Shown: positions 16,560 to 43,380, counted from the stretch's first letter. The stretch: 64,000 nt of DNA from Candidatus Micrarchaeota archaeon (GCA_013425335.1 JACCLG010000050.1:17532-81531); one strand, 5' to 3'. A program made the numbers and translations. The notes: generated from the letters alone by a model not told the origin.

Positions 16560-18236
16560 GTGCCAATGAGGAAGCTTTTCTTAATACTGCTCTTAATGCC
16601 TCTTCTGGCAGCGCAGCAGTCTGTCGGAAGGGAGGGTCTCAAATGGGTGTTCAGCACAGACGACTACGTCATCTCCTCCCCAGCAGTACACAATGGTGTT
16701 GTATTCTTCGGCTCTGCAGACGGCTACTTTTATGCGCTTAACTCGACAAATGGAACTCCCCTCTGGACATACGGGAGGGTCGGCAGGATACAAACCTCGC
16801 CTGCAGTCTCCGATGAGATGGTCTTCTTCGGCTCAAACGACGGATACCTTTATGCCCTTTTACTCAACGGGACGCTTGCATGGAAGTTCCAGACGGACGA
16901 CATAATTCTCTCCTCTCCAGCCTTGTCAAGCGGCATGGTCTTCTTCGGCTCAAACGATGGATACCTTTATGCCCTTTTACTCAACGGGACGCTTGCATGG
17001 AAGTTCCAGACAGGTAACAAAATAATATCCAGCCCCGCGTATGATTACGGGCTCCTTTACTTCGGCTCCACAGACGGCACCTTGTACGCATTTGACCCGT
17101 ATGCTGGAAGGATGCTGTGGAACTACACCGGAGAGGCGGCATTTGCCTCGTCACCCATAACATCAAACTGGATTGTGTACGCTGGCTCTGATGACGGCAC
17201 TCTCTACGCCTTCAATGCTTTCAATGGGACAGTTGTCTGGAAGCAGAAATACCCCGGCAAAATCCAGTCCAACTTTGCAATTTCGCCAAGTAACATATTG
17301 TATTTCTCCTGCAAGGACGGCAACATATATGCAGTCTACGCAGCCGACGGCAGCAAGTCCTGGAACATAACCACCGGAACTGAGGCGCAGTCGTCAGTGC
17401 ACTACGATGCCGACTCCGGCTTCAGCTATTTTGGAACCAGCGACAATAATCTCTACGCTGCGGATCCCCAGGGCCATATAGCATGGAGATTTGAAACAGG
17501 CAACTGGGTCATCTCAACCCCTCTCGATTACCGCGGAATACTTTATGTCGGCTCCTATGACGGGAATCTCTACGCCATATCTACAATACGCACCAGCTTC
17601 GCCTACAGCGAGATGAACGTCACCGGTCCTTTCGCTTCCATCAACGGCACATCCTACGCAGATACGGGCGTAAAATACGTTCAGGTCAGGTTCAACGAGG
17701 GGGAGTGGGAGAATGCCAGCGGGACAACGAGCTGGAGCTACACATGGAATGCATCCTCATTTAAGAACGGCGGGTATACCTTTGAGGCAAGAAGCATTGA
17801 CAATCTCAGCAATGCTGAGCTTCCGCCGTATTCCAGCTCCCTTGTCCGGCTCCAAAGCGTTGTCAGGAAGGAGATGATAGTATCGTATACCGCAACAGCC
17901 GTGGTTGGGCTGCCCATAAAGTTTGAAGTTAATGACAGTGACGGAAACCCAGTGCCGTATCCTGAAGTGACAATTTTCGGCAAGATATACCTTGGGGACA
18001 AGAACGGGGTTGTTGCCGCTGATGAGAAAGGCAACCCGATAAAATCCGATGCGGAGGGGCAGTTCAACTTCACTGTCAGCAAGCAGGGTTATATAACGCA
18101 GGAACGCACCCTGAAAGTTGAGAAGCTTGTAGACGCGCTTCCATACATTCTGGCTAGCATCGCAGTGCCGCTTGCCATCCTTCTGCCTTTGGCGTATCTG
18201 CTCATAAGGAAGCTGAGTAGCAGGAGGAAGCAATAG
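16560..18236 (+). CDS. PQQ-repeat beta-propeller protein, secreted with C-terminal TM anchor
   Basis: Signal peptide; multiple blades of the form 'FFGSxDGxLYA...G.xxW.F'; C-terminal hydrophobic anchor + RKLSSRRKQ; contains an internal 117-bp tandem duplication. Confidence 0.75.
   Translation: MPMRKLFLILLLMPLLAAQQSVGREGLKWVFSTDDYVISSPAVHNGVVFFGSADGYFYALNSTNGTPLWTYGRVGRIQTSPAVSDEMVFFGSNDGYLYALLLNGTLAWKFQTDDIILSSPALSSGMVFFGSNDGYLYALLLNGTLAWKFQTGNKIISSPAYDYGLLYFGSTDGTLYAFDPYAGRMLWNYTGEAAFASSPITSNWIVYAGSDDGTLYAFNAFNGTVVWKQKYPGKIQSNFAISPSNILYFSCKDGNIYAVYAADGSKSWNITTGTEAQSSVHYDADSGFSYFGTSDNNLYAADPQGHIAWRFETGNWVISTPLDYRGILYVGSYDGNLYAISTIRTSFAYSEMNVTGPFASINGTSYADTGVKYVQVRFNEGEWENASGTTSWSYTWNASSFKNGGYTFEARSIDNLSNAELPPYSSSLVRLQSVVRKEMIVSYTATAVVGLPIKFEVNDSDGNPVPYPEVTIFGKIYLGDKNGVVAADEKGNPIKSDAEGQFNFTVSKQGYITQERTLKVEKLVDALPYILASIAVPLAILLPLAYLLIRKLSSRRKQ
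16818..17051 (+). repeat. 117-bp (39-aa) near-perfect tandem duplication inside the PQQ-repeat gene
   Basis: 16818-16896 and 16935-17013 are identical over about 79 nt except one transition; they encode MVFFGSNDGYLYALLLNGTLAWKFQT twice. Confidence 0.9.
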
Positions 18237-18250: not shown

Positions 18251-18284
18251 CAGGTTTAAATAGCAAGTAAGGCATAATTTAGGC
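18251..18284 (+). promoter_or_regulatory. Leaderless core promoter: TATA 'tttaaata' + conserved 'aaggcataatttag' initiator region
   Basis: Same architecture and near-identical motif at 21306-21337, 27901-27935 and 45975-46006, each ending 2-3 nt before the start codon. Confidence 0.55.
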
Positions 18285-20488: not shown

Positions 20489-20782
20489 ATGGAATATGTG
20501 TATGCGGCTCTGTTGCTGCATGCTGCAAAGCAGCCAGTGAATGAAGAGAATGTCGCCAAGGTACTTGGCTCATCTGGCATGCAGGTTGACCAGGCCAGAG
20601 TGAAGGCTCTTGTGTCCTCTCTGCAGGGAGTGAACATAGAAGAGGCAATAAAGCAGGCAGCAATGCCAGTTGCGGCTCCGGCTCAGGCAGCAGCGCCAGC
20701 AGCAAAGGCAGAAGAGAAGAAAGAGGAGAAGAAACCAACAGCGGAGGAAGCTGCGGCAGGACTGTCGGCTCTATTCGGTTGA
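20489..20782 (+). CDS. rpl12: 50S ribosomal protein L12 (P1), acidic stalk protein
   Basis: N-terminus [15 protein letters not shown], Ala/Glu/Lys-rich hinge, C-terminus GLSALFG; internal ATG 20489 chosen. Confidence 0.85.
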
Positions 20783-20795
20783 TTTTTAAAAAGGG
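20783..20795 (+). terminator. T-rich stretch after L12 (candidate archaeal intrinsic terminator)
   Basis: 'ttgatttttaaaaa' immediately after the rpl12 stop. Confidence 0.3.
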
Positions 20796-21061
20796 TTGGG
20801 AGATGCCAGCGAGTTTCCTTAGCCGGCAGCTCCCATAAGGGGCAATCAGAACCCCAGGTCCGGCCATTCCTCCTTTCCACCATGCCTACGTGGCATGCTC
20901 CCACCCCTAAGGGTCTAGCTTCCTGCTTCATAGACGTTGCTTCTGCAACATCTCTCTCCTTCTGCAAGGAATTGCAGGCGTTACTTCCCCCTTGCCCAGG
21001 GGTAGCTCTCATGAGTATGCTTTTACCCCACCTCTGAAGACTGTGGGGTTTCTCGATCGCT

Positions 21062-21187
21062 TCAGCTAACGTCAAGTACCAGCCTATCCCCTATCCTTTG
21101 TATCACGGTGGAAACATTACTCATCTTGAGCCTCTCAGCGAGAGCCTCTACTTCATTCAAGGTCAGTTGCGCGATGTCAATTTTCAT
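21062..21187 (-). CDS. Small protein (41 aa), copy 1 of a paralogous pair behind a duplicated promoter/5'UTR
   Basis: Start MKIDIAQL preceded by SD 'gaggtgattgag'; the upstream 87 nt are nearly identical to 58335-58421; the ORF-track N-terminal extension is the conserved non-coding leader read through. Confidence 0.5.
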   Translation of the reverse strand: MKIDIAQLTLNEVEALAERLKMSNVSTVIQRIGDRLVLDVS

Positions 21188-21267
21188 CTCAATCACCTCT
21201 TTACTGCTAAGAGCTGGTTTTCCGGGGTATTTAAATAGGCGGAAGGGGGGTAGCTTTCCAGTGATCA
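21181..21267 (-). promoter_or_regulatory. Conserved 87-nt promoter + 5'UTR cassette (BRE/TATA 'cgcctatttaaatacc', SD 'gaggtga'), copy 1
   Basis: About 84/87 identity with 58335-58421; TATA box and SD are positioned correctly for the downstream small gene. Confidence 0.6.
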
Positions 21268-21337
21268 TAACGACGTGGCTTCGAGGTGATTACTAAACAA
21301 AAACAAGCTTAAATATCAGAAAAGGAATAATTTAGAC

Positions 21338-22207
21338 ATGGCTGAAAACGTCAAAATTATAGGAAAGCAGAACTCGGAAGAAAAAGCACCAGAAAAAGAG
21401 CACTTCCAGCATATCAAGGAGCTTATCCACCACCTGCATAGAAAGAAATTTGTCGAACCCAGCTCAGTGGAGGAGGTACTGAGATGGATAGATAATGACT
21501 GGAAAAGCGGGGCGCTGAAGAAATTTGCTGATGAACATGAAAAGGATAAGGAAAAATTCATAAAGAAGTTTAAGGCGAATGAAAAGCTTACTGCGGAGAT
21601 GAAAAGTATAATGGAGAAAGTGGGCAAGGGCGTTCTGAGCGAAGATGAGATAAAAGAGGTTAAGGAGAGATTCGGAGGGGCAAAATACTCATGGAGCCGT
21701 TACTCCGTGGCTCCCGTTATAGCCGCCCAGCAAAGAGCAAGCCATATCGAAATAATTAGAACCGTCCCCTTACTGGATGGAGCCATGCGTTACGGTGAAG
21801 AAATCCATGAGTCTGCCCACTATATACAGCTCTTTATAACGGAAAAGCAGCTTGAGCGCGGAGACATCAAGGACCCAATACTAAAAAAACTTCATGGTTA
21901 CCTGCATGAAAAATACGATACTGAGACAATTGAGACCGTAGAGCGTATCTATCTTGGCAGGAGATATGAGGAAACAATAGCCAACGCCCTTAGTTATAGT
22001 ATGTTACACTCAAGAGACACATCCAACGCTTCTCGTGATCTCAATGTAATAATTGAGTTCAGGCTAATCGGGCGGGATATCCGGGATTTGGGACATCTTG
22101 CCAAGGATAACCCCAAGAAATTCAGAGAGCTCCTAGAAAACCCGTCATGGTGGGTGGAAGCTGGCAGCGTTGAAAGCCTTGTGGAGAAGCTAAAACGGAG
22201 TGAGTAA
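21338..22207 (+). CDS. Hypothetical protein (289 aa)
   Basis: Clean ORF with leaderless start after the conserved 'aaaggaataatttagac' promoter motif. Confidence 0.55.
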   Translation: MAENVKIIGKQNSEEKAPEKEHFQHIKELIHHLHRKKFVEPSSVEEVLRWIDNDWKSGALKKFADEHEKDKEKFIKKFKANEKLTAEMKSIMEKVGKGVLSEDEIKEVKERFGGAKYSWSRYSVAPVIAAQQRASHIEIIRTVPLLDGAMRYGEEIHESAHYIQLFITEKQLERGDIKDPILKKLHGYLHEKYDTETIETVERIYLGRRYEETIANALSYSMLHSRDTSNASRDLNVIIEFRLIGRDIRDLGHLAKDNPKKFRELLENPSWWVEAGSVESLVEKLKRSE

Positions 22208-26753: not shown

Positions 26754-26838
26754 GGGCCGGTAGATCAATGGTAGATCGCTACCTTCGCATCTTCCGCGGA
26801 AAAGGTAGAGGCTGCGGGTTCGAATCCCGCCCGGTCCA
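26754..26838 (+). tRNA. tRNA-Ala (anticodon CGC) with 13-nt intron after position 37
   Basis: Acceptor stem GGGCCGG/CCGGTCC with the G3:U70 Ala identity pair, D-arm GATC/GATC, anticodon stem CTACC/GGTAG, loop TTCGCA, then insert 'tcttccgcggaaa'. T-arm GCGGG-TTCGAAT-CCCGC, discriminator A, no encoded CCA. Confidence 0.8.
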
Positions 26839-27850: not shown

Positions 27851-27935
27851 TTTGCTACTTGCGCAGGGAGGTTAGAAGGGACCGCCAGGTCCCTCTCTTG
27901 AAGGTTTAAATAGCAAAAGAGGCCTAATTTAGGGT

Positions 27936-29407: not shown

Positions 29408-29623
29408 TTAAAAATTTACTCTTAATCTGTTTCCAAATTCGGAAATGAAAGCCAAGAATATACCAAATATCATAATAAAAAATCCTATGATATTACCAAT
29501 TATATTACCTGCTGTTAACATATAACCTAAGCCAACTAGGGATAGAATTGCTCCGATAAATGCAAGAGGTTTATCTGTTGCTAGCTTAACGATTATGTCA
29601 ACTTTATTATCTGACATAGTCAA
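29408..29623 (-). CDS. Small membrane protein (71 aa, 2 TM)
   Basis: Hydrophobic helices; lies in the AT-rich island. Confidence 0.35.
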   Translation of the reverse strand: MTMSDNKVDIIVKLATDKPLAFIGAILSLVGLGYMLTAGNIIGNIIGFFIMIFGIFLAFISEFGNRLRVNF

Positions 29624-29645
29624 TCACCTCTTTAATCAATAATAA

Positions 29646-30563
29646 CTATGAATTGCCAAATCCTTTCCACAGCACACCACATGTTGGAAAGCTAGTAAAA
29701 TTGATTGCAGTAGACTGTTCTGCCGGACTAAGTGGAAATTCCCACTTTGAGATTACCCTTAAATGTCTAATTTCATGTGGTTCTAAATCAATGCTCATAT
29801 ATTGCTTTCCATTAAGCATTATTACTACAGCTAAACCTGTATCCTTATCACAGTAACTATATCCACTCTGCGGTTCTATAACGTAACTCCTTATCTCCTC
29901 ATCTTCAAAATTTTTTATCGTATAGTCCGAAACTGCATAAATCGCATTATCTTGTAACCTAAAAAAACCTATTTTTACAGCAGGAATATTAGTTTCGCAT
30001 ACATTTATAGAAGTGGACTGGTAATTCCTTCCAATAAGAGTAGCATCACAACTCATCTTGTTTAAGTCGACCTCCTGCCCGATATACACGTCCAAACTTG
30101 TGCTTTTAACTTTGAAAGCGTTAGTGTCAATATCAAGATATATTGTATTAGTCATATTATTTCCACCGTTTGAATAATACCAGCTTTCTTGTGTAAACAC
30201 TTTCACATAAGGGTTCTCTTCTACTCTTAGGAGACTGAGATAAGCATTCCCAGGAAGCTCTACGGAAAAATTATCCGACCTCTCAAAAAAAGGTAGATTG
30301 GGAAATAATGCCGTATCGATATCGTAAGTAAGTTTCGAAATTTTGAAATATTCTATATCGTACCCCCCATTCCCATTTGCCACCGGTCCTCCGTATAAAT
30401 ACATGGGTTGGCTTTTGACATCAGAAATTCTAGGTGAAAAAATCGGTTGGATTGCTTGATTGGATATAAAATAAGCCAAGACGGTTATAACTAAACCCAC
30501 AATGGCCTTAATAATTAAACTTTGCGTATCCATTTTCTTTGCCACAAGTTCACCATTATACAT
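29646..30563 (-). CDS. Membrane-anchored/secreted hypothetical protein (305 aa)
   Basis: N-terminal TM then a beta-rich Asn/Tyr-rich domain; AT-rich codon usage. Confidence 0.5.
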   Translation of the reverse strand: MYNGELVAKKMDTQSLIIKAIVGLVITVLAYFISNQAIQPIFSPRISDVKSQPMYLYGGPVANGNGGYDIEYFKISKLTYDIDTALFPNLPFFERSDNFSVELPGNAYLSLLRVEENPYVKVFTQESWYYSNGGNNMTNTIYLDIDTNAFKVKSTSLDVYIGQEVDLNKMSCDATLIGRNYQSTSINVCETNIPAVKIGFFRLQDNAIYAVSDYTIKNFEDEEIRSYVIEPQSGYSYCDKDTGLAVVIMLNGKQYMSIDLEPHEIRHLRVISKWEFPLSPAEQSTAINFTSFPTCGVLWKGFGNS

Positions 30564-30661
30564 TTTATCTCTGTAAGATTATAAATCTACTCCATCACTG
30601 GAAAGGTACCCCTTCGTGAAGTTTATAAACCATTAATACGAAGGATAATATAGGTGGATTT

Positions 30662-31507
30662 GTGGCAGAAGAGAAAGCAAAAATTACGGGCCTACTAAAT
30701 AAACTCTACGTAAAAGACTGCATAGAATTCATGCGTGAGTTACCGGAAAAATGTATAGACGTTATTGTAACTTCACCTCCTTATAACATCGGCAAAGATT
30801 ATTCAGTTTATAATGATGACAAGACTAGACAGGGATACCTTGACTGGATGGAAAAGGTAGCGGTTGGAAGTAAAAGAGTTCTAAAGGAGAATGGTTCTTT
30901 CTTCTTAAATGTTGGTGGCAAACCATCTGATCTTGTAATACCGTATGATGTTGAAAACCGTTTTAGGAGGCATTTTATTTTGCAGAATGATATAATCTGG
31001 GTTAAATCTATAGCAATAACTAAAGAAGACGTAGGGAAGAGTAATGGACTGGACCATGATGTTTTGGTAGGGCACTATAAACCGATCCAAAGCAGCCGTT
31101 TTCTGAATAATTGCCACGAGAACATCTTTCACTTTACAAAAGAGGGTAAAACAAGCCTCCATAAACTTTCTATCGGTGTCCCATATCAATACAAATCAAA
31201 TATAGCACGCTGGGGCAAAAAACAGGATATACGAGACAGAGGCGATGTTTGGTTTATCCCTTATGAGACGATACAGGAGCGTCGTCCGCATCCTGCTGTT
31301 TTTCCAAAGAAACTCCCTCTATTATGTGTAAAATTACATGGAGTTAAGAAGGATATGATTGTTTATGACCCATTTGTTGGAATAGGAACTACTGCTTTAG
31401 CTTGTTTAGACTTAAAAGTAAACTACTTAGGTACTGATGTAGACCATAATTACATCAAAATTGCAAATGAAAGAATTGAGGAAATAAAGGCACAATTAAA
31501 GCTTTGA
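30662..31507 (+). CDS. DNA methyltransferase, beta-class amino-MTase (N4-cytosine or N6-adenine)
   Basis: Motif IV TSPPY near the N-terminus and motif I DPFVGIGTT near the C-terminus, which is the circularly permuted beta-class order. Confidence 0.8.
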   Translation: MAEEKAKITGLLNKLYVKDCIEFMRELPEKCIDVIVTSPPYNIGKDYSVYNDDKTRQGYLDWMEKVAVGSKRVLKENGSFFLNVGGKPSDLVIPYDVENRFRRHFILQNDIIWVKSIAITKEDVGKSNGLDHDVLVGHYKPIQSSRFLNNCHENIFHFTKEGKTSLHKLSIGVPYQYKSNIARWGKKQDIRDRGDVWFIPYETIQERRPHPAVFPKKLPLLCVKLHGVKKDMIVYDPFVGIGTTALACLDLKVNYLGTDVDHNYIKIANERIEEIKAQLKL

Positions 31508-32002
31508 TTGTGATCCAGCCATACTGCTTAAAAGTTGGAGTGCTTTTTCACGAGAAATTTTTGTAGTAGTGCCCAATTCTCCAGCTTTCCACCACGAACG
31601 TACTTGTTCTGAAGTTATTATCCAAAAAGGAACATCCGGGAATTTTTCTATGTCCGACACTATATATCCCTTAATCTCTTTGAGTTTTACTAAAAATCCT
31701 TCTTCCTCAAAAGAACGCTTCGAACCAACCATATAACTGGGGGAAAAATATATTCCACCCTTGCTAATACTTCTGACTTCCCACTTTCCACCTTCTCTAT
31801 CTAAGAGGTCAAAACCTGCTCCTTCACTTGAGGCAAGCTTCCCATGCAAAACCTCATAAGCAAGCCGTCTTTCCAATAGAAATGAAACACGGCGCCCATC
31901 TGTAAAATAAAGGCGAACATCATCCTTGCCTATTTTTAATGCCTTAGCAATTTCTTCAATATTCCATTTGAGATAACCTTCGATTTTGCCCATGACAATC
32001 AC
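31496..32002 (-). CDS. Putative restriction endonuclease (PD-(D/E)xK-like) partnered with the methyltransferase
   Basis: 168 aa; candidate catalytic pattern FDLLD...EVRS; tail-to-tail 12-nt overlap with the MTase gene, typical of type II R-M pairs. Confidence 0.35.
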   Translation of the reverse strand: MIVMGKIEGYLKWNIEEIAKALKIGKDDVRLYFTDGRRVSFLLERRLAYEVLHGKLASSEGAGFDLLDREGGKWEVRSISKGGIYFSPSYMVGSKRSFEEEGFLVKLKEIKGYIVSDIEKFPDVPFWIITSEQVRSWWKAGELGTTTKISREKALQLLSSMAGSQSKL

Positions 32003-32010
32003 CGAGAGAC

Positions 32011-33975
32011 TCAGCTTTTATCTTTAAAATCATCGATTAAGCCATTTATATTACTAAACAGAGAGTCATTTATAACACTAAGCAGTTTTGTGAAAGACCG
32101 TTTTAAGTTATTTGGATAATTGGTAAAGTCATATCCAATTTGTTTAGCTAATTCTGAGCTTTCTTTCTTTTTTTGTTTATCATTTGATATATGCGTCAGA
32201 TGTCTACGGATACCCCTAAGCAATTTAACAGAATTTTCAATCTCATTTTGCTGCTTTTCACTTGCGTTTAGATACTTCGAAAATTCTTTTAAAGCTTCAA
32301 CATCCCCGCTGCAACTTTTGCCTAACTTATCTTCTATTTCTTTTTTATTTAAGTTTTCAATAATTAATTGATTTAGTAAATCAACACCCTGATCAAATTC
32401 TAAAGGCGTTTGTACCTCTTTCGGGAAATAAACAATTTTAACCACTTTATCAGTCGGTATATCATGAAATAATCCAAAATTAAGTTTATTGTTACTAATA
32501 CCATTTGTCTCATTAATGCGTCCGATTATTGAAATCAGCGTCAATTCAGTAAGCGTACTACTTACCAGATCCTTACTATTCCCTACTAGTCTTTTTGAAA
32601 GCTCATCAGTTGCCTTGTTAATTTCTCTGAATGTTAGGCATTGACCATACTTTTTCTCACTAAATTCTTCATCTCTAATACTTTCGAGTTTAGTTTCAAA
32701 ATCCTCTTTCGATGGTTTTCTTTTGCGAATTAAAGCAAGAATAACTGGCAGTATACTAAGAAATACATTTATGCCCTGTCTTTTTGTAATTACATAGTTA
32801 TCCCTATCGTTCCACTGCTTTTCAAAACAACTCTTTATAGCGCTTAGATAGTTGATTAGTATTACCACTATCTCTTTTTCATCACGAGACTTCAATTCCC
32901 TCTCCATAAGTTTTGGAAGAACATAAAATTGACTATTACCAATCCACTTCTTAGTCTGCCATTCATGTATCCTAATTTTTTTATATAGAGGTGAATTCGG
33001 CATTTCATTTAATCTATGGACTACCACAGCAGTTCTTCCTTTAGTATCATCTATTTTCTGCAATCTAAATAATAACCAATTACGCAAAGTTGCGGGGACT
33101 CTTTTTTGATTATCATTAATCTCTGTGAAAAGAGATATTTTCCTAGTAGATTCTAACTCTTCGAAGCCAGTAATAATAATCTTAAATTTATCAGGGGTTT
33201 TTTGCTTCTTGCATTCTTTAAAACCGTATAATCTATGCTGACCGTCTATTACTTCAACCGATTGCTCTACTAATGGAATTTCGAGATAGCCTTGTTCAAA
33301 TACTCCTTTCTTAGTTGTTGTAAAATTAACTCGTTTAGTGAAGTTGACTATAATGTTATTCGCAAGAATAGCTTTTGGTTTGTCAAGAAAAGAACCTATC
33401 TCTTTTAGTCTTTTTGGTTTTAAATATCGTTGATAACCTAGCGGCGTATTCTCTTCATCTCGGTCAACTTTGGCGATTTTGAGTAAATCTGTCGCTCTCA
33501 TAGCAAATATGTACATTTTTTCTTTTCCTTGCTTGACTCGAATCGATGGTACTGATATTAACTGAGGAGGGATTTCAAAAAATTTCTCTATCAAAATTGA
33601 TGCATAATCTTTCTTGTAAAGTTTCGAATTTTGCCAATAACTCCCCAACATAGGTTCGTCCCATATTATTATTCCTCTACTTTTTGCCCATTCTTTATTT
33701 TTTGAGCTAACCCTCTTAGAATCGAAAACTAAAAGGCCACATATCTTGTTTATTTTCTTTCTATCTAATTCGTGGACTATGCCATCTAATTCCCGAACAC
33801 AAGTTTTAACATTACGCCCCTTAGCCATCGTACATTCAATTATTAGTTTAAACTCTCTGAAACTTGCAACCACATCAATTTCTTTATCAGCTAACTCAAT
33901 TTTGGTTTTTACTTTAAATCCTGCATTTCTAAAAAGTTTGGCTACCTTTTTTTCAGTTCGATTAAGTCTTGGCAT
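32011..33975 (-). CDS. Fusion protein: N-terminal Mrr-like PD-(D/E)xK domain + DGQHR (DndB-like, ParB/Srx superfamily) domain
   Basis: N-terminal restriction-endonuclease-like fold (IDVVA...IIECT...K); DGQHR motif EVIDGQHRLYGF; 654 aa. Confidence 0.6.
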   Translation of the reverse strand: MPRLNRTEKKVAKLFRNAGFKVKTKIELADKEIDVVASFREFKLIIECTMAKGRNVKTCVRELDGIVHELDRKKINKICGLLVFDSKRVSSKNKEWAKSRGIIIWDEPMLGSYWQNSKLYKKDYASILIEKFFEIPPQLISVPSIRVKQGKEKMYIFAMRATDLLKIAKVDRDEENTPLGYQRYLKPKRLKEIGSFLDKPKAILANNIIVNFTKRVNFTTTKKGVFEQGYLEIPLVEQSVEVIDGQHRLYGFKECKKQKTPDKFKIIITGFEELESTRKISLFTEINDNQKRVPATLRNWLLFRLQKIDDTKGRTAVVVHRLNEMPNSPLYKKIRIHEWQTKKWIGNSQFYVLPKLMERELKSRDEKEIVVILINYLSAIKSCFEKQWNDRDNYVITKRQGINVFLSILPVILALIRKRKPSKEDFETKLESIRDEEFSEKKYGQCLTFREINKATDELSKRLVGNSKDLVSSTLTELTLISIIGRINETNGISNNKLNFGLFHDIPTDKVVKIVYFPKEVQTPLEFDQGVDLLNQLIIENLNKKEIEDKLGKSCSGDVEALKEFSKYLNASEKQQNEIENSVKLLRGIRRHLTHISNDKQKKKESSELAKQIGYDFTNYPNNLKRSFTKLLSVINDSLFSNINGLIDDFKDKS

Positions 33976-34063
33976 ACACTCCCTCGGATTACAGCAATAC
34001 GATTATTATTTGTGTTGTATATTAAGCTTTTTATTACGATACTTGCTTCATAACATATAACGT

Positions 34064-34324
34064 TCACACGCTCACGTACGGAGCATATTCATCCATGTGA
34101 CTGAATTTCACCCTATCCTGCTGTTCTTTCTCCAGTTCCATTTTTATGTGTGACTCCACGAAGCTCTTCACGTAAGGATGTTCGTATAACACTATAACTT
34201 CATTAAATCCGTCCTCAAAATCTTTCTTTATATTAGTCAGGGCGTTCTTGTATTCAAAAGTAACTTCAACTGCAATTCTTTTCTTATGGGGGCTTTTTTC
34301 AGTAGGAAATACCGCAACATCCAC
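34064..34324 (-). CDS. Hypothetical protein (86 aa)
   Basis: ORF only. Confidence 0.3.
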   Translation of the reverse strand: MDVAVFPTEKSPHKKRIAVEVTFEYKNALTNIKKDFEDGFNEVIVLYEHPYVKSFVESHIKMELEKEQQDRVKFSHMDEYAPYVSV

Positions 34325-34348
34325 TCTCCCGCCTCTTCCTCTCGAACA

Positions 34349-35050
34349 TTACTCCTCCAGCTCCTTAACCACCTTCACTATCCCCTCAAACCTCTCAATT
34401 GTGAAATCCGCAACATTCTCCTCCTCGGAATACCTCTGGCATCCATACTTTGCCAGGCAGGTTAGGAGCCCTGCTTTCTTTGCTCCAATTATGTCTCTCT
34501 CAGGATTATCTCCAACAAACAAAGCCTCCCTCGGAGACACTCCCAGCAGGTGAACCACCCTGAGGAAAGGCTGTTTCGACGGCTTCAACTCCTTTGTATC
34601 CTCATATGTCACAACAACGTCAAAAAGATGGTCCAGTCCTGAGAGGATGAGCCTCTGCCACGCCTTCTCCCTGGGCGCATCTGAGACTATCCCAAGCTTG
34701 TAGCTCTGCTTAAGCTTCTTCAGAGTGCCCACAACTTTCGGCCTCGGTCTCAGCAAAGCGTATTTCTTCTTCTCATATGCGATTATTGCAGCCTGCTTCG
34801 CATGCTCGTGCAGATGCGGGCCCAGAACATAGCCTGAGAGAAGCTCCTCAAACGTTCTCTGGTACTCTATTCCTCTTGTTTCGTATATTGCGAATATCTT
34901 CCCGTAAAGCTCCCTCTCCCCTGCCTTCACCCCTGCTTCCCGGATGGCTTTGGCTGCAGCAAGCGCGCTCTCCCTCTTGAAGCCTGAGAAGTCAAGCAAT
35001 GTGTTGTCCAGGTCAAAAACAATTGCCTTAATCATATAAAATCCACTCAT
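34349..35050 (-). CDS. HAD-superfamily hydrolase (subfamily IA)
   Basis: Motif I IVFDLDNTL, motif III K, motif IV GDNPERDI; GC-rich host-like composition. Confidence 0.75.
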   Translation of the reverse strand: MSGFYMIKAIVFDLDNTLLDFSGFKRESALAAAKAIREAGVKAGERELYGKIFAIYETRGIEYQRTFEELLSGYVLGPHLHEHAKQAAIIAYEKKKYALLRPRPKVVGTLKKLKQSYKLGIVSDAPREKAWQRLILSGLDHLFDVVVTYEDTKELKPSKQPFLRVVHLLGVSPREALFVGDNPERDIIGAKKAGLLTCLAKYGCQRYSEEENVADFTIERFEGIVKVVKELEE

Positions 35051-35064
35051 ACCAAATATTCTTA

Positions 35065-35085
35065 GGTATATTAAGATTGCTTTGG
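35065..35085 (-). promoter_or_regulatory. 21-nt promoter cassette 'c(c)aaagcaatcttaatatac' (TATA 'ttaatata'), copy A, upstream of the HAD hydrolase gene
   Basis: Identical 19-21-mer also at 39498-39518 and 40009-40029, each 15-55 nt upstream of a minus-strand start codon. Confidence 0.55.
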
Positions 35086-35096
35086 CTTTAATGTAT

Positions 35097-36089
35097 TCAG
35101 CTATCCCTATTCATATCTTTCCCAAATTCTTTAGATACTAATTCACGAAACGTTGTCTTAAATGAAACTTGGTGCTTTGGTCCACCCATAGTAATCTCCC
35201 TAAAAAGTTTTCGTGGCTCACCATCGATAACATATACTTTATGCTCCCAATTTAGACTAGAATCCCATCCTTCTTCTTTTACCCATTTTATATACTCGTT
35301 TTTAGCTTTGCAACCTCTCCAGCTTTCTTTAGCAGTTTCGATTTTCGTTTCTTTAACTTTACAGATATGAGTTATTGCACTGGGTAAACCATTTTTTCTA
35401 TGCGTTTCGATTACTGCTATATACAAAGCATCAGCAGCACCAGTATTTTGTACTATTATATTTTTTTCTTTTAATAGTTTGAAAAACATAGGCTTAGTAT
35501 ATACCGCAAGTACTTCAACAACATCTTCAATACGTTGTTCATCCATCTTTTTTATACTATTCATCATATCACCTATCCATACATTAAACATCTTCGTCAT
35601 TTTCTTTGTTGATTTTTCTGATAAGTCTATTAAATACTGCCAAGAATATGTTAAAAATTCTGTTTTTTCTAATTTCAACTCGCTTTGGATACTCTCAGTC
35701 TCTTCAGAAGTCAGATCTCGTTTTGTCACATATACCAAACGTATATTTGGAAAGTAGGCTCTTTGTTTGAGCAGGAAATCTGCATAATTCTTAAGCTGAG
35801 AAACGTATTCAGGTTTGTGTTCAATAATTTTTGATTCTATAATCACCATAAACTCATTTTGCTTGCGTATCATCAGATCAGTTATTCCATAAGGTTCAAT
35901 AGATTCTTGAGTTCTTATTCTAACGTCTCTGATTTTGGAATTGGGTAACTTAAGCTCTTTTAAGAATTCAGTAAAAACCTGTTGATCACTATGCAGAATG
36001 AAACCAAAAGAAATAGATAAACGATTTTCTGTTCGAGGATTTTTCGGCAATCTCGCTTGCACAAAGTCAAATATATTATCAATATTCAC
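35097..36089 (-). CDS. PD-(D/E)xK nuclease-family protein (330 aa)
   Basis: Motif ITDLMI...VIIESKI (D...ExK); AT-rich. Confidence 0.45.
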   Translation of the reverse strand: MNIDNIFDFVQARLPKNPRTENRLSISFGFILHSDQQVFTEFLKELKLPNSKIRDVRIRTQESIEPYGITDLMIRKQNEFMVIIESKIIEHKPEYVSQLKNYADFLLKQRAYFPNIRLVYVTKRDLTSEETESIQSELKLEKTEFLTYSWQYLIDLSEKSTKKMTKMFNVWIGDMMNSIKKMDEQRIEDVVEVLAVYTKPMFFKLLKEKNIIVQNTGAADALYIAVIETHRKNGLPSAITHICKVKETKIETAKESWRGCKAKNEYIKWVKEEGWDSSLNWEHKVYVIDGEPRKLFREITMGGPKHQVSFKTTFRELVSKEFGKDMNRDS

Positions 36090-36146
36090 TCTAACACCCT
36101 AAGCAATATTTACTATAATTCTGGCTGTACATATCTATTGTTTCCT

Positions 36147-37490
36147 TCAAATCTCGCACTTCCTTCCCTTTTCAGTAACCTCCGTATTCCTGCAAGCAAC
36201 ACCAAACATCCCAGGATTCATCGTATGTACTGGGAAAACCTTCTTGGCATCTATCTCCTTCACAATCTCAAAAATCTCGCTTTTGCTTGCGTGCCCGCTT
36301 GCGTGGAGCTGGTGCCTCCTCATCCCAAAATGCTCCAGCCAGTTCTCCAGCACATCATCAGAAACCTGCGACATCGGGTCCTCCTCGAAAGGCTCGCTCA
36401 TTGAATGGATGCACTCCCCCCCGGAAGGCCTCACATCCACCAGCTCAGTCAACTGCCAGAAGTCCAGCTCGAATATCAGCTCCTTCTGGTTGTCATGAAT
36501 ATACCCAGAATCAACGCAGTCGTCCATCATCGGCTTCTCCCATTTCTTGTATGTTTTCATCTTCCTGCAGTAAACCTCAATATGCTTATCCTTGAAAGGG
36601 TCAGAAAGCCCCAGAGGGTCGTCCTTCAAAGACTGAAGAAGATGGGCGGTTTTCATGGATGTCACCAGCTTCCTCCCGCTTTCCTTCGCAATATCATGGA
36701 AAGTCCTGAACCTGTCCAAGTCTTTCGGGTATCTCATTGCAAGCACAAGCCTGTCAGATTCATGGATAACTTTCTTGCTTTCCTCCTTCACAGACTCCTC
36801 GGAGTAATTCTTCCTTTTTTCCACGTCAAATACCCTGGTTCCTTCTATTATGAGTGCCTCAGGCTCAGCTTCCTTTGCCCTCTGGACGAACTCACGGGTC
36901 ATGTCGCCTCTTGGGCCGTGCTGCCTCAAGTCTCCGGTATAAGCAACCACCCCTTCAGATGTTTCAACAAGGAAGCCGTATGCGCCTGGAACGGAATGGT
37001 CGACATGGATTGGAGTTACCTTCAAATCCCCCACGGAAATCTCCTGCCCGCTCCTGAATTGCCTTATCTCGGCCCCTTCTGCGAAGTATCTGTTGCTCGT
37101 GGTCTCAGCATTGGAGTCAAGTATCTTCTTGGCAGTTTCTCCCATGTAGATAGGTATCCCTGGATGCAGATATTCCAGATGAGCCACATGGTCAAAATGG
37201 GCGTGGGAGATGAAAACCCCGTCAAACCCCGGTTCAGAGGCCTTCAGGTCAGTATGCTCAATTGCCTCATCTGAGTAAAGCCCGTTCAACTTCGGAATAA
37301 GCCCAAATTCGAAGTAATCCCTGAGCCCGAACCTGTCCCTTGGGGAGAGATAAGACTCTGGGACGAAATAATCATCCAGCAGGGAGAAGGACTGCCCGAA
37401 GTCCAGGAATATCCTTGTCTTCCTGTCCTCAAGCAGTATCTTGTTTCCGCCTATCTCCTTTACTCCGCCGAAGAATGTAAGAGATGTCAT
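36147..37490 (-). CDS. rnj: RNase J-like metallo-beta-lactamase / beta-CASP ribonuclease
   Basis: N-terminus FFGGVKEIGGNKILLE; MBL motif HAHFDH; beta-CASP region; about 447 aa as in archaeal RNase J. Confidence 0.75.
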   Translation of the reverse strand: MTSLTFFGGVKEIGGNKILLEDRKTRIFLDFGQSFSLLDDYFVPESYLSPRDRFGLRDYFEFGLIPKLNGLYSDEAIEHTDLKASEPGFDGVFISHAHFDHVAHLEYLHPGIPIYMGETAKKILDSNAETTSNRYFAEGAEIRQFRSGQEISVGDLKVTPIHVDHSVPGAYGFLVETSEGVVAYTGDLRQHGPRGDMTREFVQRAKEAEPEALIIEGTRVFDVEKRKNYSEESVKEESKKVIHESDRLVLAMRYPKDLDRFRTFHDIAKESGRKLVTSMKTAHLLQSLKDDPLGLSDPFKDKHIEVYCRKMKTYKKWEKPMMDDCVDSGYIHDNQKELIFELDFWQLTELVDVRPSGGECIHSMSEPFEEDPMSQVSDDVLENWLEHFGMRRHQLHASGHASKSEIFEIVKEIDAKKVFPVHTMNPGMFGVACRNTEVTEKGRKCEI

Positions 37491-38116
37491 TTATATCCCT
37501 CCAGCAGAAGCCTGCCCCAGAACGTCTGGGAGTACTTCTTTTCATCCTGGTTGAATGATACAAACCCAATGCTCTCAAGGTTGTTCAAATGGCGGAAAAT
37601 GCGGGGGTAATCCTTCCTATCCCCCTTCAAATCATCCACAATCTCTTTCAGCTTCCTGTCCTCTTTCACTGCTTCCAGAACCTTCTTCTGCGAGCTGCTC
37701 AGGACAAATGGAGCCGATATAGGGGGCAGCAGATCAGTTTTGAACCTATCAGCCTTCCTTATTGTTACAATGAGGTGCATTTTCCTCTTGACAAAGAAGG
37801 TTGCGTAGAGCAAAGCCAGCGCGATGTGCCTCTCCCCTCCCCCTATGTGGATGTAAAGCTCGTCATCTTTGCCTGTTGAATTGAGGATGCGGATGCACTC
37901 TCTGACTGCCTTCTCAAACGGTTCGTCTGTTATGAACTCCTCTCTGGTGCTTATCAATGTCTTTATCCTTTCGATTGTATCCCTGACCTTCTCCCTCTCC
38001 GAGCGGTCTTTTGAGTGAATCACAATGGCCCTGTCTGCCCCCGTTTTAACCGCATTCCTTAATGACTCTTCAAAAACCTTGGGGGTAAACCCCACCGACA
38101 TGACGTGAATCCGCAT
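37487..38116 (-). CDS. Csa3-like CARF + winged-HTH regulator
   Basis: N-terminal CARF-like Rossmann start MRIHVMSVGFTPKVF and HIGGGERHIALALL segment; C-terminal wHTH; 4-nt ATGA overlap with the RNase J-like gene. Confidence 0.5.
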   Translation of the reverse strand: MRIHVMSVGFTPKVFEESLRNAVKTGADRAIVIHSKDRSEREKVRDTIERIKTLISTREEFITDEPFEKAVRECIRILNSTGKDDELYIHIGGGERHIALALLYATFFVKRKMHLIVTIRKADRFKTDLLPPISAPFVLSSSQKKVLEAVKEDRKLKEIVDDLKGDRKDYPRIFRHLNNLESIGFVSFNQDEKKYSQTFWGRLLLEGYK

Positions 38117-38223
38117 GGATAGCTATTATCTGTGAAAGTATTTAAAGTTAATGTTTGCTTTTATAAAGCAACTATTTAATAAAAAGAGCAAACATTTAAA
38201 TAGAACTTCCTTCATAATTAAGG

Positions 38224-38409
38224 GTGGGTGATAGTTTGAACGGGAAATTGGTTAGAAGGAGAAGGAAGTGCGGGGGTGCCATCACGGTGGCTACGGAGGG
38301 AATGGTCATAGAAGTGGGCTCGGATAACATCAGGGAGTCTGAGCGCATCGTGAAGAGCATGCTGGAGAGTCTCAAAGAGCCGAAAAAGCAGGTAACCTAT
38401 ATCCGGTGA
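38224..38409 (+). CDS. Small hypothetical protein (61 aa)
   Basis: ORF only. Confidence 0.25.
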   Translation: MGDSLNGKLVRRRRKCGGAITVATEGMVIEVGSDNIRESERIVKSMLESLKEPKKQVTYIR

Positions 38410-38442
38410 TTGGATGTACGAGGAATATGTGGAGGTGGGGAA

Positions 38443-38739
38443 ATGTTAATAAAAGTACCAAAGCAATTCAAAGTAAAAATTCTGAAAAATCCGCGTGAGA
38501 ATAAGCAAAAAAGAGAAGATGAACTTCAGATGGTAGAACCTTTAGGTGACGAAACAAAGAATCTTTTCGACAAATACGATGATTGGAACTTCATAATTAT
38601 AAAATGGAAAAAAGACTCGGAGGAAACGGACATTAGGTATGCAACTAACATCGTGGAAAATGTGCCTTTTCCAGAAGTCTTGGGTATACTAGAGAACTCA
38701 AAGGGCCCTGTGATGGAGATAATATTTGGCGGAGATTAA
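38443..38739 (+). CDS. Small hypothetical protein (98 aa)
   Basis: ATG 38443 preceded by a strong SD 'ggaggtgggg'; the ORF track extends to TTG 38410. Confidence 0.4.
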   Translation: MLIKVPKQFKVKILKNPRENKQKREDELQMVEPLGDETKNLFDKYDDWNFIIIKWKKDSEETDIRYATNIVENVPFPEVLGILENSKGPVMEIIFGGD

Positions 38740-38908
38740 ATACCTAGGAATAATCTTTTATATAGAAAATCCGAATAATGCTTCAGGAAAGTGTGTAGCC
38801 TGTGACTGAGGTTATCAGTGCGATAAGGTCAACAGCGTCCGAGGCAAAACGACTTTTACGACGTAAAATTGGATTAACTTAAGATTGTATTTTTTAATTA
38901 GTCATTAA

Positions 38909-39475
38909 TCATCCAAATTTAAAGCTTGTTATGACGCTCTCAAAGACTGGTTTATATCTATCATAATCAGTTGGGCGAGTTGAGCAGGTGATTGTATAAA
39001 GATGCTCATTTCCTATCAAACTTACTTGCTGGACTTTGTAGTCCTGTCCTCCTCTGTTATAAGTTATGACGAACTCATGCCCCGGCATTCCGTTTAATGT
39101 CCTGTTCTCAAAAGATACAATGGTAATGCTGTTGTTTTTATAGAGTTCTATACTAGAAGCTCCCATATTATTTAAAAACTCACTAAAAGTTTCGTAGACT
39201 GGCACTGGCTGCTCTTCCCGGAGTATGCTGCATTTTGAACTGAAACCGGCTTCTTGAGGGGAAGTGAAGGTAACTTTCGCACCTCCGCTCTCTTCAACCT
39301 GCCACCCATCTGGGTAGATAAGCGAAAAACCGTAGTCATCGGACCCCCAGCAGTTTGTTACCCCCCTCTTCTTGCATTGTTCAGATTGAGTTCCTTTAGG
39401 TTGCCCCCCAGAACATCCGTAAATCAATAAGGTGAATAGCAACATGGCAATAATCTTCTTTTTCACTTTTACCAC
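38909..39475 (-). CDS. Putative lipoprotein (188 aa)
   Basis: Signal peptide with lipobox-like LIYGC; downstream of promoter cassette copy B. Confidence 0.5.
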   Translation of the reverse strand: MVKVKKKIIAMLLFTLLIYGCSGGQPKGTQSEQCKKRGVTNCWGSDDYGFSLIYPDGWQVEESGGAKVTFTSPQEAGFSSKCSILREEQPVPVYETFSEFLNNMGASSIELYKNNSITIVSFENRTLNGMPGHEFVITYNRGGQDYKVQQVSLIGNEHLYTITCSTRPTDYDRYKPVFESVITSFKFG

Positions 39476-39497
39476 CCATCAAATATCTACATTCGGG

Positions 39498-39518
39498 AGT
39501 ATATTAAGATTGCTTTGG
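39498..39518 (-). promoter_or_regulatory. 21-nt promoter cassette, copy B
   Basis: 'agtatattaagattgctttgg' identical to copies A and C; about 25 nt upstream of the lipoprotein start. Confidence 0.55.
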
Positions 39519-39598
39519 TAGGTTGGGTGGTGGAATTACAAAGACGTAATCCCACGATCTACCAACCCTTTAAATCAGGGCGGATAGATTTCGGAAAA

Positions 39599-39958
39599 CT
39601 ATCCCTTCTTCTTGGGGACTGGCAGAGGTTTTGCATAGGAAGCCAGTAGCTTTATCGCCCGCTCTAAGGCATACTTCACTTCTCTCTCATTCTTGCAGCC
39701 TGTACATATTACTTTACCGTTCTTGAAGAGCAGAAGAGATGCCTTTGGATCTTTGAGCTTGAGTATTGCACCTGGGAACTGCTCGGGCTCATACTCTATG
39801 TTCCTGACTTTCTTACCAAGAACATAAAGGTCAAGTTCCACTCCCAAATTGGCTGAAGCTACTATGTTCTCTATCTTGAATGATGGATCAATTGTAAGTT
39901 TCTTTGTCAATGAAACACCTTCTCTGCCCCCTTCCAGCCCATTTCTACTCAAAACCAC
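39599..39958 (-). CDS. Single-repeat TATA-binding-protein-like protein (half-size TBP paralog)
   Basis: 119 aa; one TBP repeat with hallmark KIENIVASANLGVELDL...YEPEQFPGAILKL...LLLFKNGKVICTG; in-frame stop 4 nt upstream of GTG start and next gene begins at 40016, so no second repeat is encoded. Confidence 0.6.
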   Translation of the reverse strand: MVLSRNGLEGGREGVSLTKKLTIDPSFKIENIVASANLGVELDLYVLGKKVRNIEYEPEQFPGAILKLKDPKASLLLFKNGKVICTGCKNEREVKYALERAIKLLASYAKPLPVPKKKG

Positions 39959-40008
39959 CTGTTAGATGCCTCCCACCATACTCTCACTCATCAAATAGTT
40001 CTGTTCTG

Positions 40009-40029
40009 TAGTATATTAAGATTGCTTTG
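40009..40029 (-). promoter_or_regulatory. 21-nt promoter cassette, copy C, upstream of the TBP-like gene
   Basis: 'tagtatattaagattgctttga'. Confidence 0.5.
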
Positions 40030-41956: not shown

Positions 41957-41973
41957 ATACTATATCAACGCCT

Positions 41974-43374
41974 TCAACCCATCCTCTCAGGAAGCTTCGG
42001 TGCCTTCCCTGTCAGCTCGTCCATATCGGTTATGCCTGTTTTCAGCTTATCTGTATCTATCCTGAACATTCTTCTTTCCTTGGTGTTTATCGCGACCAAC
42101 TTTCCATCTATACCTATGCCCGGCATCCAATCCTTTTTGGCGCACTTCTCTTCAAATTTCCTCAACTTTTCTTCTCCATTTTTGATTCTTTCAGATATGC
42201 CCTTAACATTATCATCAGCCAGTTCGTTGCAGAGAGTAATATAATCCCTGAAACCTTCTGCTTTTCTTGCGTAGTTTGCCTCCTCCTTATAGTGCTCAAG
42301 CAGGCTCCTCGGCGGAGAGCTGAACTTTATGACAACTGACCTGCCCTCCCCTGTTTCCTCTTTCTCAACCGAGTTCAGTATTATTGTCTTGCCTGCGCCT
42401 GCAGAGCCTCCTCCATACGAGTGGTTTCTATCTTGTTTTAAAGCAGCTGCATTCTTATAATCCTCAAAAAAAACCTGCGGAGTTGGAGTGATTACGAAAA
42501 ATGATAACTCTAGAGCAGCATATGCCCGGATCACATTGTCATTGCTGCTTAGCGAATTAGCCGCCGCAGACTGGGCTCTTCCCTCTTTATATCTCAAATC
42601 AGCCCTACGGAGTTCTGGATCCAGGATAAATTTTGAGAACTCCAGATTCTCTTTTGTTTTTTCATCCAATGGGTTCTTCCATAACTCCTTATCATACAAA
42701 TGAACTAGGAACACCGTGGCATCAGTATAAAATTTAGTCTTTTGAACTTCGTATTCATGAGCTATCTCTTCCCGACTGGCACCAGTAAGTTCGGAATAAA
42801 ACTCAACAATCTTCGATGGATCTTTGAATAGAGGTAAAAGTATCCTGTCTACTTCTTTTATCTTCTTGCCGAATGGCTCTTCAATATGGCTAATTTCATG
42901 CGGTATTTGAGAGACGGCATGAAGAATATCTAACCCTTCTTCAAACAGGATAGTAGAACCTGCTGTTCCTAAATAACCAGTTTTTGCGATGGATATATCC
43001 AATCTCTTTTTAAAATTTTCCTCTGTGTAATTGGATAAAAACTTCAATGTATGTCCATCATCTACAACTTTTTCAGAAAGATTGTTTTTCTCTGCAAAAA
43101 CTCGGTTTAATCCCTCTCCTACCTCAACTACCCTTTTTAGTATATCCCTGTCTCCTCTTATAAATGAATCCAGGAGAGCTTGTGGATTCCTAGTTTTCTG
43201 GAGAACATCCTGAGCATCGATTAATCCCGGGAGTGTTTTATTTAAAATGTCGCAAGATTGATAAAAAAACTCTCTAACTCCTTCGCTTAATACTAGCTCG
43301 CTTCTTTTTGTGGCTGTTGCTGCCATGCCTAGAATTATGCCTTTCTTGTTATTTAAGCTTGCTTTGTCTAACAA
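41974..43374 (-). CDS. Hypothetical protein with HExxH motif (ImmA/IrrE-like?) and C-terminal P-loop NTPase motif
   Basis: PHEISHIEE; Walker A GGGSAGAGKT; 466 aa. Confidence 0.45.
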   Translation of the reverse strand: MLDKASLNNKKGIILGMAATATKRSELVLSEGVREFFYQSCDILNKTLPGLIDAQDVLQKTRNPQALLDSFIRGDRDILKRVVEVGEGLNRVFAEKNNLSEKVVDDGHTLKFLSNYTEENFKKRLDISIAKTGYLGTAGSTILFEEGLDILHAVSQIPHEISHIEEPFGKKIKEVDRILLPLFKDPSKIVEFYSELTGASREEIAHEYEVQKTKFYTDATVFLVHLYDKELWKNPLDEKTKENLEFSKFILDPELRRADLRYKEGRAQSAAANSLSSNDNVIRAYAALELSFFVITPTPQVFFEDYKNAAALKQDRNHSYGGGSAGAGKTIILNSVEKEETGEGRSVVIKFSSPPRSLLEHYKEEANYARKAEGFRDYITLCNELADDNVKGISERIKNGEEKLRKFEEKCAKKDWMPGIGIDGKLVAINTKERRMFRIDTDKLKTGITDMDELTGKAPKLPERMG

Positions 43375-43380
43375 AATGAA

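Follow-up and report, generated by a model that had tools for sequence, protein, structure and literature searches.

The stretch analyzed here, hereafter the window, comprises 64,000 nucleotides (nt) of one strand from a Candidatus Micrarchaeota archaeon (GCA_013425335.1 JACCLG010000050.1:17532-81531), and it contains two nearly identical copies of a short promoter and leader cassette, each lying ahead of a gene for a mini-protein. A repeat search of the 64-kb window returned a single direct-repeat family of two copies, 21174-21267 and 58328-58421, which agree at 91 of 94 bases (97% identity, three mismatches) and have the minus strand as their sense strand. Copy 1 holds the full cassette and the first five codons of gene A, while copy 2 opens at the TGA stop codon of hsp20 and extends through the full cassette into the first five codons of gene B. 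In a pairwise alignment, identity opens abruptly at TGATCACTGG and closes after ATGAAAAT.GACAT, at the fifth codon of the downstream open reading frames (ORFs), and the flanks of the two copies are mutually unrelated on either side. Sub-blocks of 17 and 36 nt each have exactly two matches in the window with up to three mismatches allowed (chance expectations of 0.06 and 0.00, respectively). On the minus strand, each copy reads TATTTAAATA, then GAGGTGATTGAG, then ATG. A preliminary description of this DNA had reported a duplicated promoter and 5′ untranslated region (UTR) ahead of two diverged small-protein paralogs; a TFB recognition element (BRE) with TATA box, a Shine-Dalgarno (SD) sequence, and an ATG on the minus strand of each copy; and regulatory DNA much better conserved than the proteins. 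The near-identical promoter and leader before two small genes are confirmed, the elements of each copy are found as described, and the 97% identity of the 94-nt repeat stands against 32% identity between the two proteins.

The cassette has a simple linear anatomy, in which an 18-nt upstream module TCACTGGAAAGCTACCCC is followed, 29 nt from the module start, by the palindromic TATA element TATTTAAATA and then by a predicted transcription start site (TSS), the SD sequence, and the ATG. The UAS-like (upstream activating sequence-like) module core is matched exactly in copy 1 at 21247-21264 (minus strand), about -59 to -42 from the predicted TSS, and lies at 58401-58418 (minus strand) in copy 2, where its first base comes directly after the hsp20 stop codon. 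Sequence matches to the TATA octamer TTTAAATA inside the palindrome occupy 21228-21235 and 58382-58389 (both minus strand). Octamers of this type are the common TATA box of the window, found before many of its genes, and the core promoter of the cassette is therefore of a kind that other genes of the same genome also use. Archaeal TBP/TFB core promoters begin transcription about 22-25 nt past the TATA box, and six leaderless genes in the window have their ATG 22-24 nt past an octamer of the TTTAAATA type. Applied to the cassettes, this leaderless-gene offset places the predicted TSS at 21205 and 58359 (minus strand), in both cases on the A of GCAGT and in copy 1 23 nt past the TATA box. The resulting 5′ UTR would be 18 nt long, short and unstructured, with a near-perfect SD. 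That SD, GAGGTGAT, is read directly from the sequence at 21192-21199, 4 nt ahead of the ATG, and at 58346-58353 (both minus strand), and it is complementary over 8 nt to the 3′ end of archaeal 16S rRNA.

An alignment of 17 distinct leaders, taken from the window and from related contigs, shows how constraint is distributed across the cassette. From 5′ to 3′ it consists of the nearly invariant module TCACYGGMAAGYTACCCCCCTYCCG, the TATA element TATTTAAATA, some 10 variable bases, (A/G)CCAC, a variable stretch, AAGAGGTGRTTGAR, and the ATG; the AGAGGTG of the SD is invariant in every aligned leader. Module, TATA box, and SD are thus nearly invariant over the 17 leaders and variation is concentrated in one short spacer. 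The earlier proposal that the regulatory region is under stronger conservation than the proteins holds, but the peak of constraint lies in an 18-26 nt module upstream of the BRE/TATA and not in the 5′ UTR. Directly upstream of copy 2 is the hsp20 gene (58419-58958, minus strand; the HSP20 Pfam assignment was made in orthologous genes), and directly past the gene B stop is a T-rich run (58141-58167, minus strand; tgattttttt cttttttccc tctgtttttc) that is a probable terminator. No T-run separates hsp20 from cassette copy 2 in the window sequence, which makes read-through from hsp20 into gene B likely. A scan for promoters and terminators of bacterial type was uninformative for an archaeon.

Gene A (21062-21187, minus strand) is an ORF for the 41-residue mini-protein MKIDIAQLTLNEVEALAERLKMSNVSTVIQRIGDRLVLDVS, with 13 homolog clusters and ratios of nonsynonymous to synonymous substitution rates (dN/dS) of 0.10-0.28; gene B (58168-58341, minus strand) is an ORF for the 57-residue mini-protein MKMDITKLKDEEIDQLISFLERRNITSFVKRNGETLLLICRSTSIRPARLELGIENI, with 11 homolog clusters and dN/dS of 0.04-0.21. 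Their products begin MKIDIAQL... and MKMDITKL... and share 13 invariant columns at 32% identity. In public data a joint A and B profile recovers 24 protein clusters, every one of them from Candidatus Micrarchaeota (Ca. Fermentimicrarchaeum limneticum Sv326 among the sources), and these fall into an A type (41 residues) and a B type (57-58 residues). Each type has its own conserved neighborhood in related loci: gene A faces the L1-L10-L12 ribosomal protein operon (rpl12) in convergent orientation, and gene B lies between hsp20 and a gene for a Yip1-like membrane protein, which is followed by the gene for TrpRS (tryptophanyl-tRNA synthetase). Across orthologs of both genes dN/dS is 0.04-0.28, with dS up to about 2, which shows that A and B are genuine protein-coding genes under purifying selection. 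The two genes most likely descend from an ancient duplication.

AlphaFold models built with the family alignment contain the same beta-alpha-beta-beta unit in A and B. The predicted local distance difference test score (pLDDT) is about 92 over residues 1-41 of B, whose tail is disordered, and 82 for A, and both are predicted to be beta-alpha-beta-beta mini-proteins. When 1.84 billion representatives were searched exhaustively by profile, the only matches were further proteins of 41-88 residues starting MK(M/I/L)D(I/V) and one repetitive 583-residue artifact, and no link to a known domain emerged. Pfam and NCBIfam searches with the A and B proteins returned nothing above cut-off, a sequence-profile search of the PDB gave no match, and a Foldseek comparison with the PDB yielded no significant match, the top ones being ACT-like N-domains and designed EHEE (beta-alpha-beta-beta) mini-proteins, all at E > 0.02. 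The AbrB/MazE-like or PRC-barrel folds suggested in the preliminary description are not supported, since the models are beta-alpha-beta-beta and neither the AbrB/MazE swapped hairpin nor a PRC barrel is among the top Foldseek matches in the PDB. A relationship to CRM/YhbY (PF01985) was also rejected: A scores 15.9 bits against a cut-off of 27 (E = 0.017), the hhalign probability against E. coli YhbY is 0.3%, and there is no PDB sequence match. The mini-proteins resemble the C-terminal half of CRM/YhbY in their beta-alpha-beta-beta order, and A matches Pfam profile positions 46-82 weakly, but they lack the half with the GxxG loop and A has only 41 residues.

Two further protein families occur beside these genes in relatives. 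In several related genomes A and/or B is immediately preceded by a gene that we call 'C' (L002 2618-2908; L010 5058-5420, minus strand; L007 5483-5797; L019 3633-3911; L numbers denote related loci), encoding 92-120 residues that end in ...ELQEELKKRKLE and have no Pfam match. The 'C' family was not found in the 64-kb window, and 'C', leader, and mini-gene may originally have been duplicated as one unit. A conserved 79-residue His/Cys-rich protein, also without Pfam match and not in the window, is encoded divergently from B in four genomes. Both families were considered as candidate regulators and set aside, given their lack of Pfam matches and their absence from the window.

The full cassette is restricted to this lineage. 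When 185,579 species genomes were scanned with a 34-nt degenerate pattern covering the module and the TATA box, seven sites were found, all in four Micrarchaeota assemblies. Three of these four genomes have exactly two sites, one ahead of A and one ahead of B, and Sv326 has a single site, ahead of B. A shorter pattern found three loci on metagenome contigs, and a scan of viral contigs for the module gave 0 matches. The preliminary description had named similarity to a generic promoter consensus, present upstream of many unrelated genes, as the result that would overturn it; in the corresponding comparison only the TATA octamer is generic and its flanks are not. The cassette is lineage-specific and not a generic promoter. 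Rfam searches, at the gathering threshold for the window in full and with E values of up to 10 for 20600-21500, gave one tRNA and matches at chance level only.

The upstream module also occurs apart from the rest of the cassette. A third copy consisting of the module only, TCACTGGAAAGGTACCCC, lies at 30595-30612 (plus strand), with 0 mismatches to the degenerate core and an nhmmer E value of 0.0014; the chance expectation for the core in the window is 0.05 even with up to three mismatches allowed. The TATA-like octamer TTTATAAA follows at 30622-30629 (plus strand), 27 nt past the start of this module, and the gene behind the promoter (ORF at 30662-31507, plus strand; PF01555, E = 2.9e-45) encodes an N6/N4 DNA methyltransferase located in or at the edge of a low-GC defense island. 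Outside the module, this promoter does not align with the cassette. On related loci a profile of the module core detects copies ahead of the nre gene (PF04894/PF04895) in L021/L022 and L013, and in Sv326 a module-bearing nre promoter is separated from nre by an inserted tnpB of IS605 type. The IS605-family tnpB occupies this place in the Sv326 sequence CP058998.1 (L001 267-1555), and in relatives of Sv326 nre has a leaderless start 23 nt past its TATA box. The module is present as well in two distant members of the mini-protein family: in P0039 (L027) ATCACTGGAATGCACCC starts 27 nt ahead of TTTTTAAA, and in P0031 (L028) the aligned core of TTTCAGTGGAAATCTACCCC starts 27 nt ahead of CTTAAAAG.

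Across these settings the distance between module and TATA box is fixed, at 27 or 29 nt from the module start in 7/7 promoter contexts, while the distance from TATA box to start codon ranges from 23 to 56 nt. One element thus stands upstream of the BRE/TATA at the same distance irrespective of the leader, and does so before several genes (A and B, the methyltransferase gene in the window, and nre in three related assemblies). It also changes slowly: between the window and DRTY-6, dS for gene A is about 1, yet the first 37 nt of the leader contain about one difference. The fixed module-TATA spacing together with the variable TATA-start distance indicates that the module works with the transcription machinery and not with translation. 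The earlier suggestion of a regulator-binding leader gains support from this cross-species conservation, distant family members included, and we think the module is most likely the binding site of a sequence-specific regulator acting on DNA, with activation a better guess than repression.

Upstream sites of this kind have precedents in archaea. Archaeal activators usually bind upstream of the BRE, at positions like -59 to -42, and known UAS cases include the Ptr2 sites in Methanocaldococcus and the GvpE UAS in haloarchaea. Another is the Phhp promoter of Thermococcales, which is bound by HhpR (PMC11705074). The cassette is like Phhp in having a conserved element at a fixed distance upstream of the BRE/TATA, kept across strains and placed before few genes, and unlike it in its unrelated sequence, in the putative nature of its regulator and of any activation, and in its lineage, the DPANN Micrarchaeota. 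A full-text literature search for the motif strings found nothing relevant. The cis-element, its regulon, and the mini-protein family are undescribed; the kinds of system, an archaeal promoter with an upstream regulatory site and, separately, concerted evolution, are known.

The similarity of the two cassettes within a genome points to a second process. Counted from TCAC to the base preceding the ATG, the A and B leaders of one genome differ at two positions in the window, 0 in Sv368, 0 in MFD04408, 12 in DRTY-6, and 15 in Ga0373630, and the MFD04408 leaders differ from their orthologs in the window and Sv368 at 8-10 positions. Paralogous leaders are therefore closer than orthologous ones in the window, Sv368, and MFD04408, and not in DRTY-6, where the pair is alike in its 5′ half only, or in Ga0373630. 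The within-genome sum of A-B differences is the smallest of all 120 permutations. Both MFD04408 copies have CTGGCAAG, the spacer CCAAGAAG, and an extra T (an indel), and both window copies have a window-specific CCAG. The region of similarity also behaves as a discrete tract, with sharp repeat ends, unrelated flanks, and a recombinant B locus: in L003 (JGI) and L004 (ENA), which are independent assemblies, the B gene lies behind about 200 nt typical of the Sv368 A locus, including the 3′ end of the 'C' gene. Shared spacer variants that look neutral, along with a shared indel, argue for DNA exchange rather than selection alone, and the pattern indicates that short-tract gene conversion, over about 90 nt, keeps the A and B cassettes alike in several genomes. 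Gene conversion had been proposed as a cause in the preliminary description, and the genome-specific variants common to both leaders of a genome favor it.

Concerted evolution by gene conversion is also seen in the bacterial tufA/tufB pair. It is equally a property of rRNA operons (PMC8022953). As in the rRNA and tuf genes, within-genome paralogs of the cassette are closer than between-genome orthologs and tract ends are sharp. Those systems homogenize the gene itself, in contrast to the cassette, whose tract covers only about 90 nt of regulatory DNA and five codons. One further locus, L024 (Ga0583561_0074328), joins hsp20, the leader, an A-type gene, and a truncated rpl12 3′ end; it may be a rearrangement or an assembly chimera formed through the repeat of about 90 nt, and we did not rely on it.

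Near-identity of the two cassettes could instead reflect purifying selection alone, with nearly every base functionally fixed and no exchange between loci. The near-invariance of module, TATA box, and SD over the 17 leaders fits such an explanation, as do the DRTY-6 and Ga0373630 pairs, which lack homogenization in their 3′ half. What it does not readily produce is a spacer between TATA and CCAC that varies between genomes and yet is identical in both paralogs of MFD04408 and of Sv368, nor the CCAG found in both window copies, the permutation rank of 1 of 120, or the recombinant upstream region of L003/L004. We therefore regard selection alone as fairly unlikely.

A different question is what binds the module. 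Archaeal origin recognition boxes (ORBs) and mini-ORBs are bound by Orc1/Cdc6 (PMC4153887, PMC1904270), and the module could be an ORB-like site through which a protein of this family regulates a DNA-metabolism regulon. Module and archaeal ORB consensus CTTCCAGTGGAAACGAAAGGGGT have the 9-nt core CA[CG]TGGAAA in common, L028 carries CAGTGGAAA exactly, and the core is followed at a distance of 4 nt by a homopolymeric G:C tract, as in the ORBs of Methanomassiliicoccales (PMC4153887, Table 2). The other module-bearing genes, the NreA-like gene and the DNA methyltransferase gene, are both DNA-related, NreA being described as a PCNA-binding repair factor (PMC4929162), and an Orc1 paralog regulates DNA-damage genes in Sulfolobales (PMC6061795). 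Set against the ORB dyad TTCCAGTGGAA, however, the left half (TTCC) of the module is shifted one base out of register, leaving an imperfect dyad, and the G-string (GGGGT) that ORBs carry 4-5 nt 3′ of the dyad is replaced in the module by CCCC(CC) on the same strand. Module sites are single and promoter-bound, whereas ORBs are clustered at the origin, around an AT-rich region, or beside orc1/cdc6; the window has no canonical ORB, and no orc1/cdc6 or cassette-adjacent transcription factor was present among 40 window ORFs scanned with Pfam. The resemblance, moreover, was picked out from among many known motifs, and the Orc1-2 regulator of Sulfolobales is reported to use a different motif. On balance an ORB-like site seems rather improbable.

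RNA-level control would fit the position of one cassette copy next to a heat-shock gene. RNA thermometers of small heat-shock genes, such as ROSE and fourU, sequester the SD, and the inverted repeat CACCTCTT-N7-AAGAGGTG could do likewise in a thermometer or translational switch. Its 8-bp stem, which includes the SD, is perfect in Sv368, Sv326, MFD04408, and L019 (-11.1 kcal/mol, z = -1.9), and since copy 2 adjoins hsp20 and no terminator intervenes, a read-through RNA would contain both arms. In transcripts from the cassette's own promoter, by contrast, the 5′ arm would be missing, as the predicted TSS falls in the loop. A G-G mismatch interrupts the stem in each window copy, and L021 has lost it; no consensus structure (-0.26 kcal/mol, three pairs) and no compensatory pair emerge from RNAalifold, and the gene that would be regulated is not hsp20. 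Single-sequence z-scores range only from -0.3 to -1.9 and the full 92-nt block has z = +0.5. With folds no better than shuffles and no covariation, we rejected the thermometer or riboswitch reading, which appears quite improbable.

Some gene callers have treated the block as coding, annotating an N-terminal extension (MITGKLPPFRLFKYPGKP...) that would yield products of 68 and 84 residues. An open frame does exist in the window, from an ATG at 21268 and a GTG at 58421, and the extension is included in database entries P0014, P0016, P0018, and P0023. But 8/17 leaders have no upstream in-frame start, four are frame-shifted through the module by small indels (SLASYPPSAYLNTP vs. TGKLPPFRLFKYP), and the variation clusters in one spacer without codon periodicity. 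A TATA box and an SD also lie within the block at the usual distances, and the module stands ahead of unrelated genes as well. On the frame shifts and absent start codons we rejected a coding extension, to which we give very little credence. Equally little credence goes to a mobile element (a miniature inverted-repeat transposable element, an integration site, or a spreading module like a type I toxin-antitoxin system), for which sharp boundaries, near-identical copies, and one module copy at the edge of the low-GC defense island might be cited, given that a genome has just two full copies, both in conserved synteny, that there are no terminal inverted repeats, target duplications, or flanking repeats and no matches on viral contigs, and that the proteins are hydrophilic and folded, unlike membrane toxins.

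We thus consider it probable that the 94-nt block is a non-coding cassette for transcription and translation in a Micrarchaeota archaeon. It would combine an upstream element of 18-26 nt (TCACYGGMAAGYTACCCC...), a palindromic TATA box 27-29 nt past the start of that element, and a TSS about 23 nt past the TATA box. Placed at about -59 to -42, upstream of the BRE, the element would serve as a putative regulator site and would join the two mini-protein genes and a few others in one small regulon, and the paralogous cassettes would be homogenized by conversion over a tract of about 90 nt that ends a few codons into the coding sequence.

Several observations weigh against this interpretation. Sv326, the sole complete genome among the matches, contains the strict pattern only once, and the scan of this window's own genome covered 64 kb. 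The Pfam scan of window ORFs found no regulator gene adjoining the cassettes, and the module copy at the methyltransferase gene could be a relic of recombination instead of a working site. Conversion is not universal, given the 12-15 differences between the A and B leaders of DRTY-6 and Ga0373630, although the Ga0373630 pair may stem from two organisms of one sample. Finally, some of the concerted pattern could also arise if both sites co-evolved with one regulator.

The surroundings of gene A include two further conserved elements. Directly past its stop, 20885-21061 (minus strand) is an insertion of about 170 nt relative to L005 and L016, found at the same place in L025/L026 and, in a related version, at another point of this intergenic region in Sv368 (L010). 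It folds to -64.6 kcal/mol (z = -3.2), shows compensatory changes between the window and L025 (ACCC..GGGGT vs. GCCT..AGGC), has no Rfam match, is single copy per locus, and may be a small structured RNA in or after the 3′ UTR of gene A. The second element, about 100 nt long (20783-20884), lies between gene A and rpl12 and is almost invariant in five related loci, for which coding dS is 0.25-0.5. Its long hairpin (GGGAGCTGCCGGC...GCTGGCATCTCCC) precedes a T-run, and the element may serve as a bidirectional terminator shared by the two genes or as a conserved part of a 3′ UTR.

Other promoters of the window fall into two further classes. One family consists of TTTAAATA, about 14 nt, and ATAATTTAGG, with sites at 18252-18283, 21305-21336, 27902-27933, 45975-46006, and 43333-43365 (inverted) and a weaker one at 38192-38223. 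At the four sites with a gene start that could be examined (18252, 21305, 27902, and the inverted 43333), the ATG is at offset 23-24, consistent with leaderless transcripts that have a conserved initiator region. Behind the TATA boxes at 23223, 30622, 25813, 23169, and 12499, the start codon lies 29-33 nt downstream and GGTG is found at the predicted TSS; 5′ UTRs of this class are predicted to be only about 8-10 nt long and to open with the SD sequence itself. The low-GC island (about 29600-45000, GC content down to 0.33) carries genes of defense type, namely those for the N6/N4 methyltransferase, a DndB-like protein (32011-33975), a PD-(D/E)XK nuclease-like protein (35097-36089), and a Csa3-like CARF regulator (37487-38116). 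A motif whose best-conserved version is GTATATTAAGATTGCTTTG recurs within the island at 35040, 39473, and 39985, and in weaker form at 43850. Elsewhere, a tRNA-Lys (CTT) gene at 26754-26838 spans 85 nt against 71 Rfam model positions and probably contains a short intron, and a tandem 117-nt repeat (78% identical) at 16764-16997, within a gene for a 558-residue PQQ/beta-propeller protein, most likely corresponds to propeller blades.

 The mini-protein family is often overlooked or wrongly extended by automatic annotation, and an exact 90-nt repeat can produce chimeric joins in metagenome assemblies. The pair is also a clean natural case of conversion that makes only about 90 nt of regulatory DNA uniform and leaves the attached genes at 32% identity. 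The module has traveled with the mini-protein family through deep divergence, as autoregulation would predict, and a bolder version of the regulon idea makes it the operator of a DPANN circuit in which A and B themselves, or an Orc1/Cdc6-like factor on an ORB-derived site, control a DNA-metabolism or stress regulon, with hsp20 read-through feeding into gene B. We consider this unlikely as a whole; if true, the proposed regulon would comprise A, B, the NreA-like repair gene, and the restriction-modification methylase. To our knowledge, gene regulation in the mostly uncultured DPANN archaea is almost entirely undescribed, and for Micrarchaeota we know of no described regulator-site pair and no characterized transcription regulators. 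The cassette offers for this lineage a deeply conserved cis-element with position rules and a short list of targets, open to direct biochemical testing.

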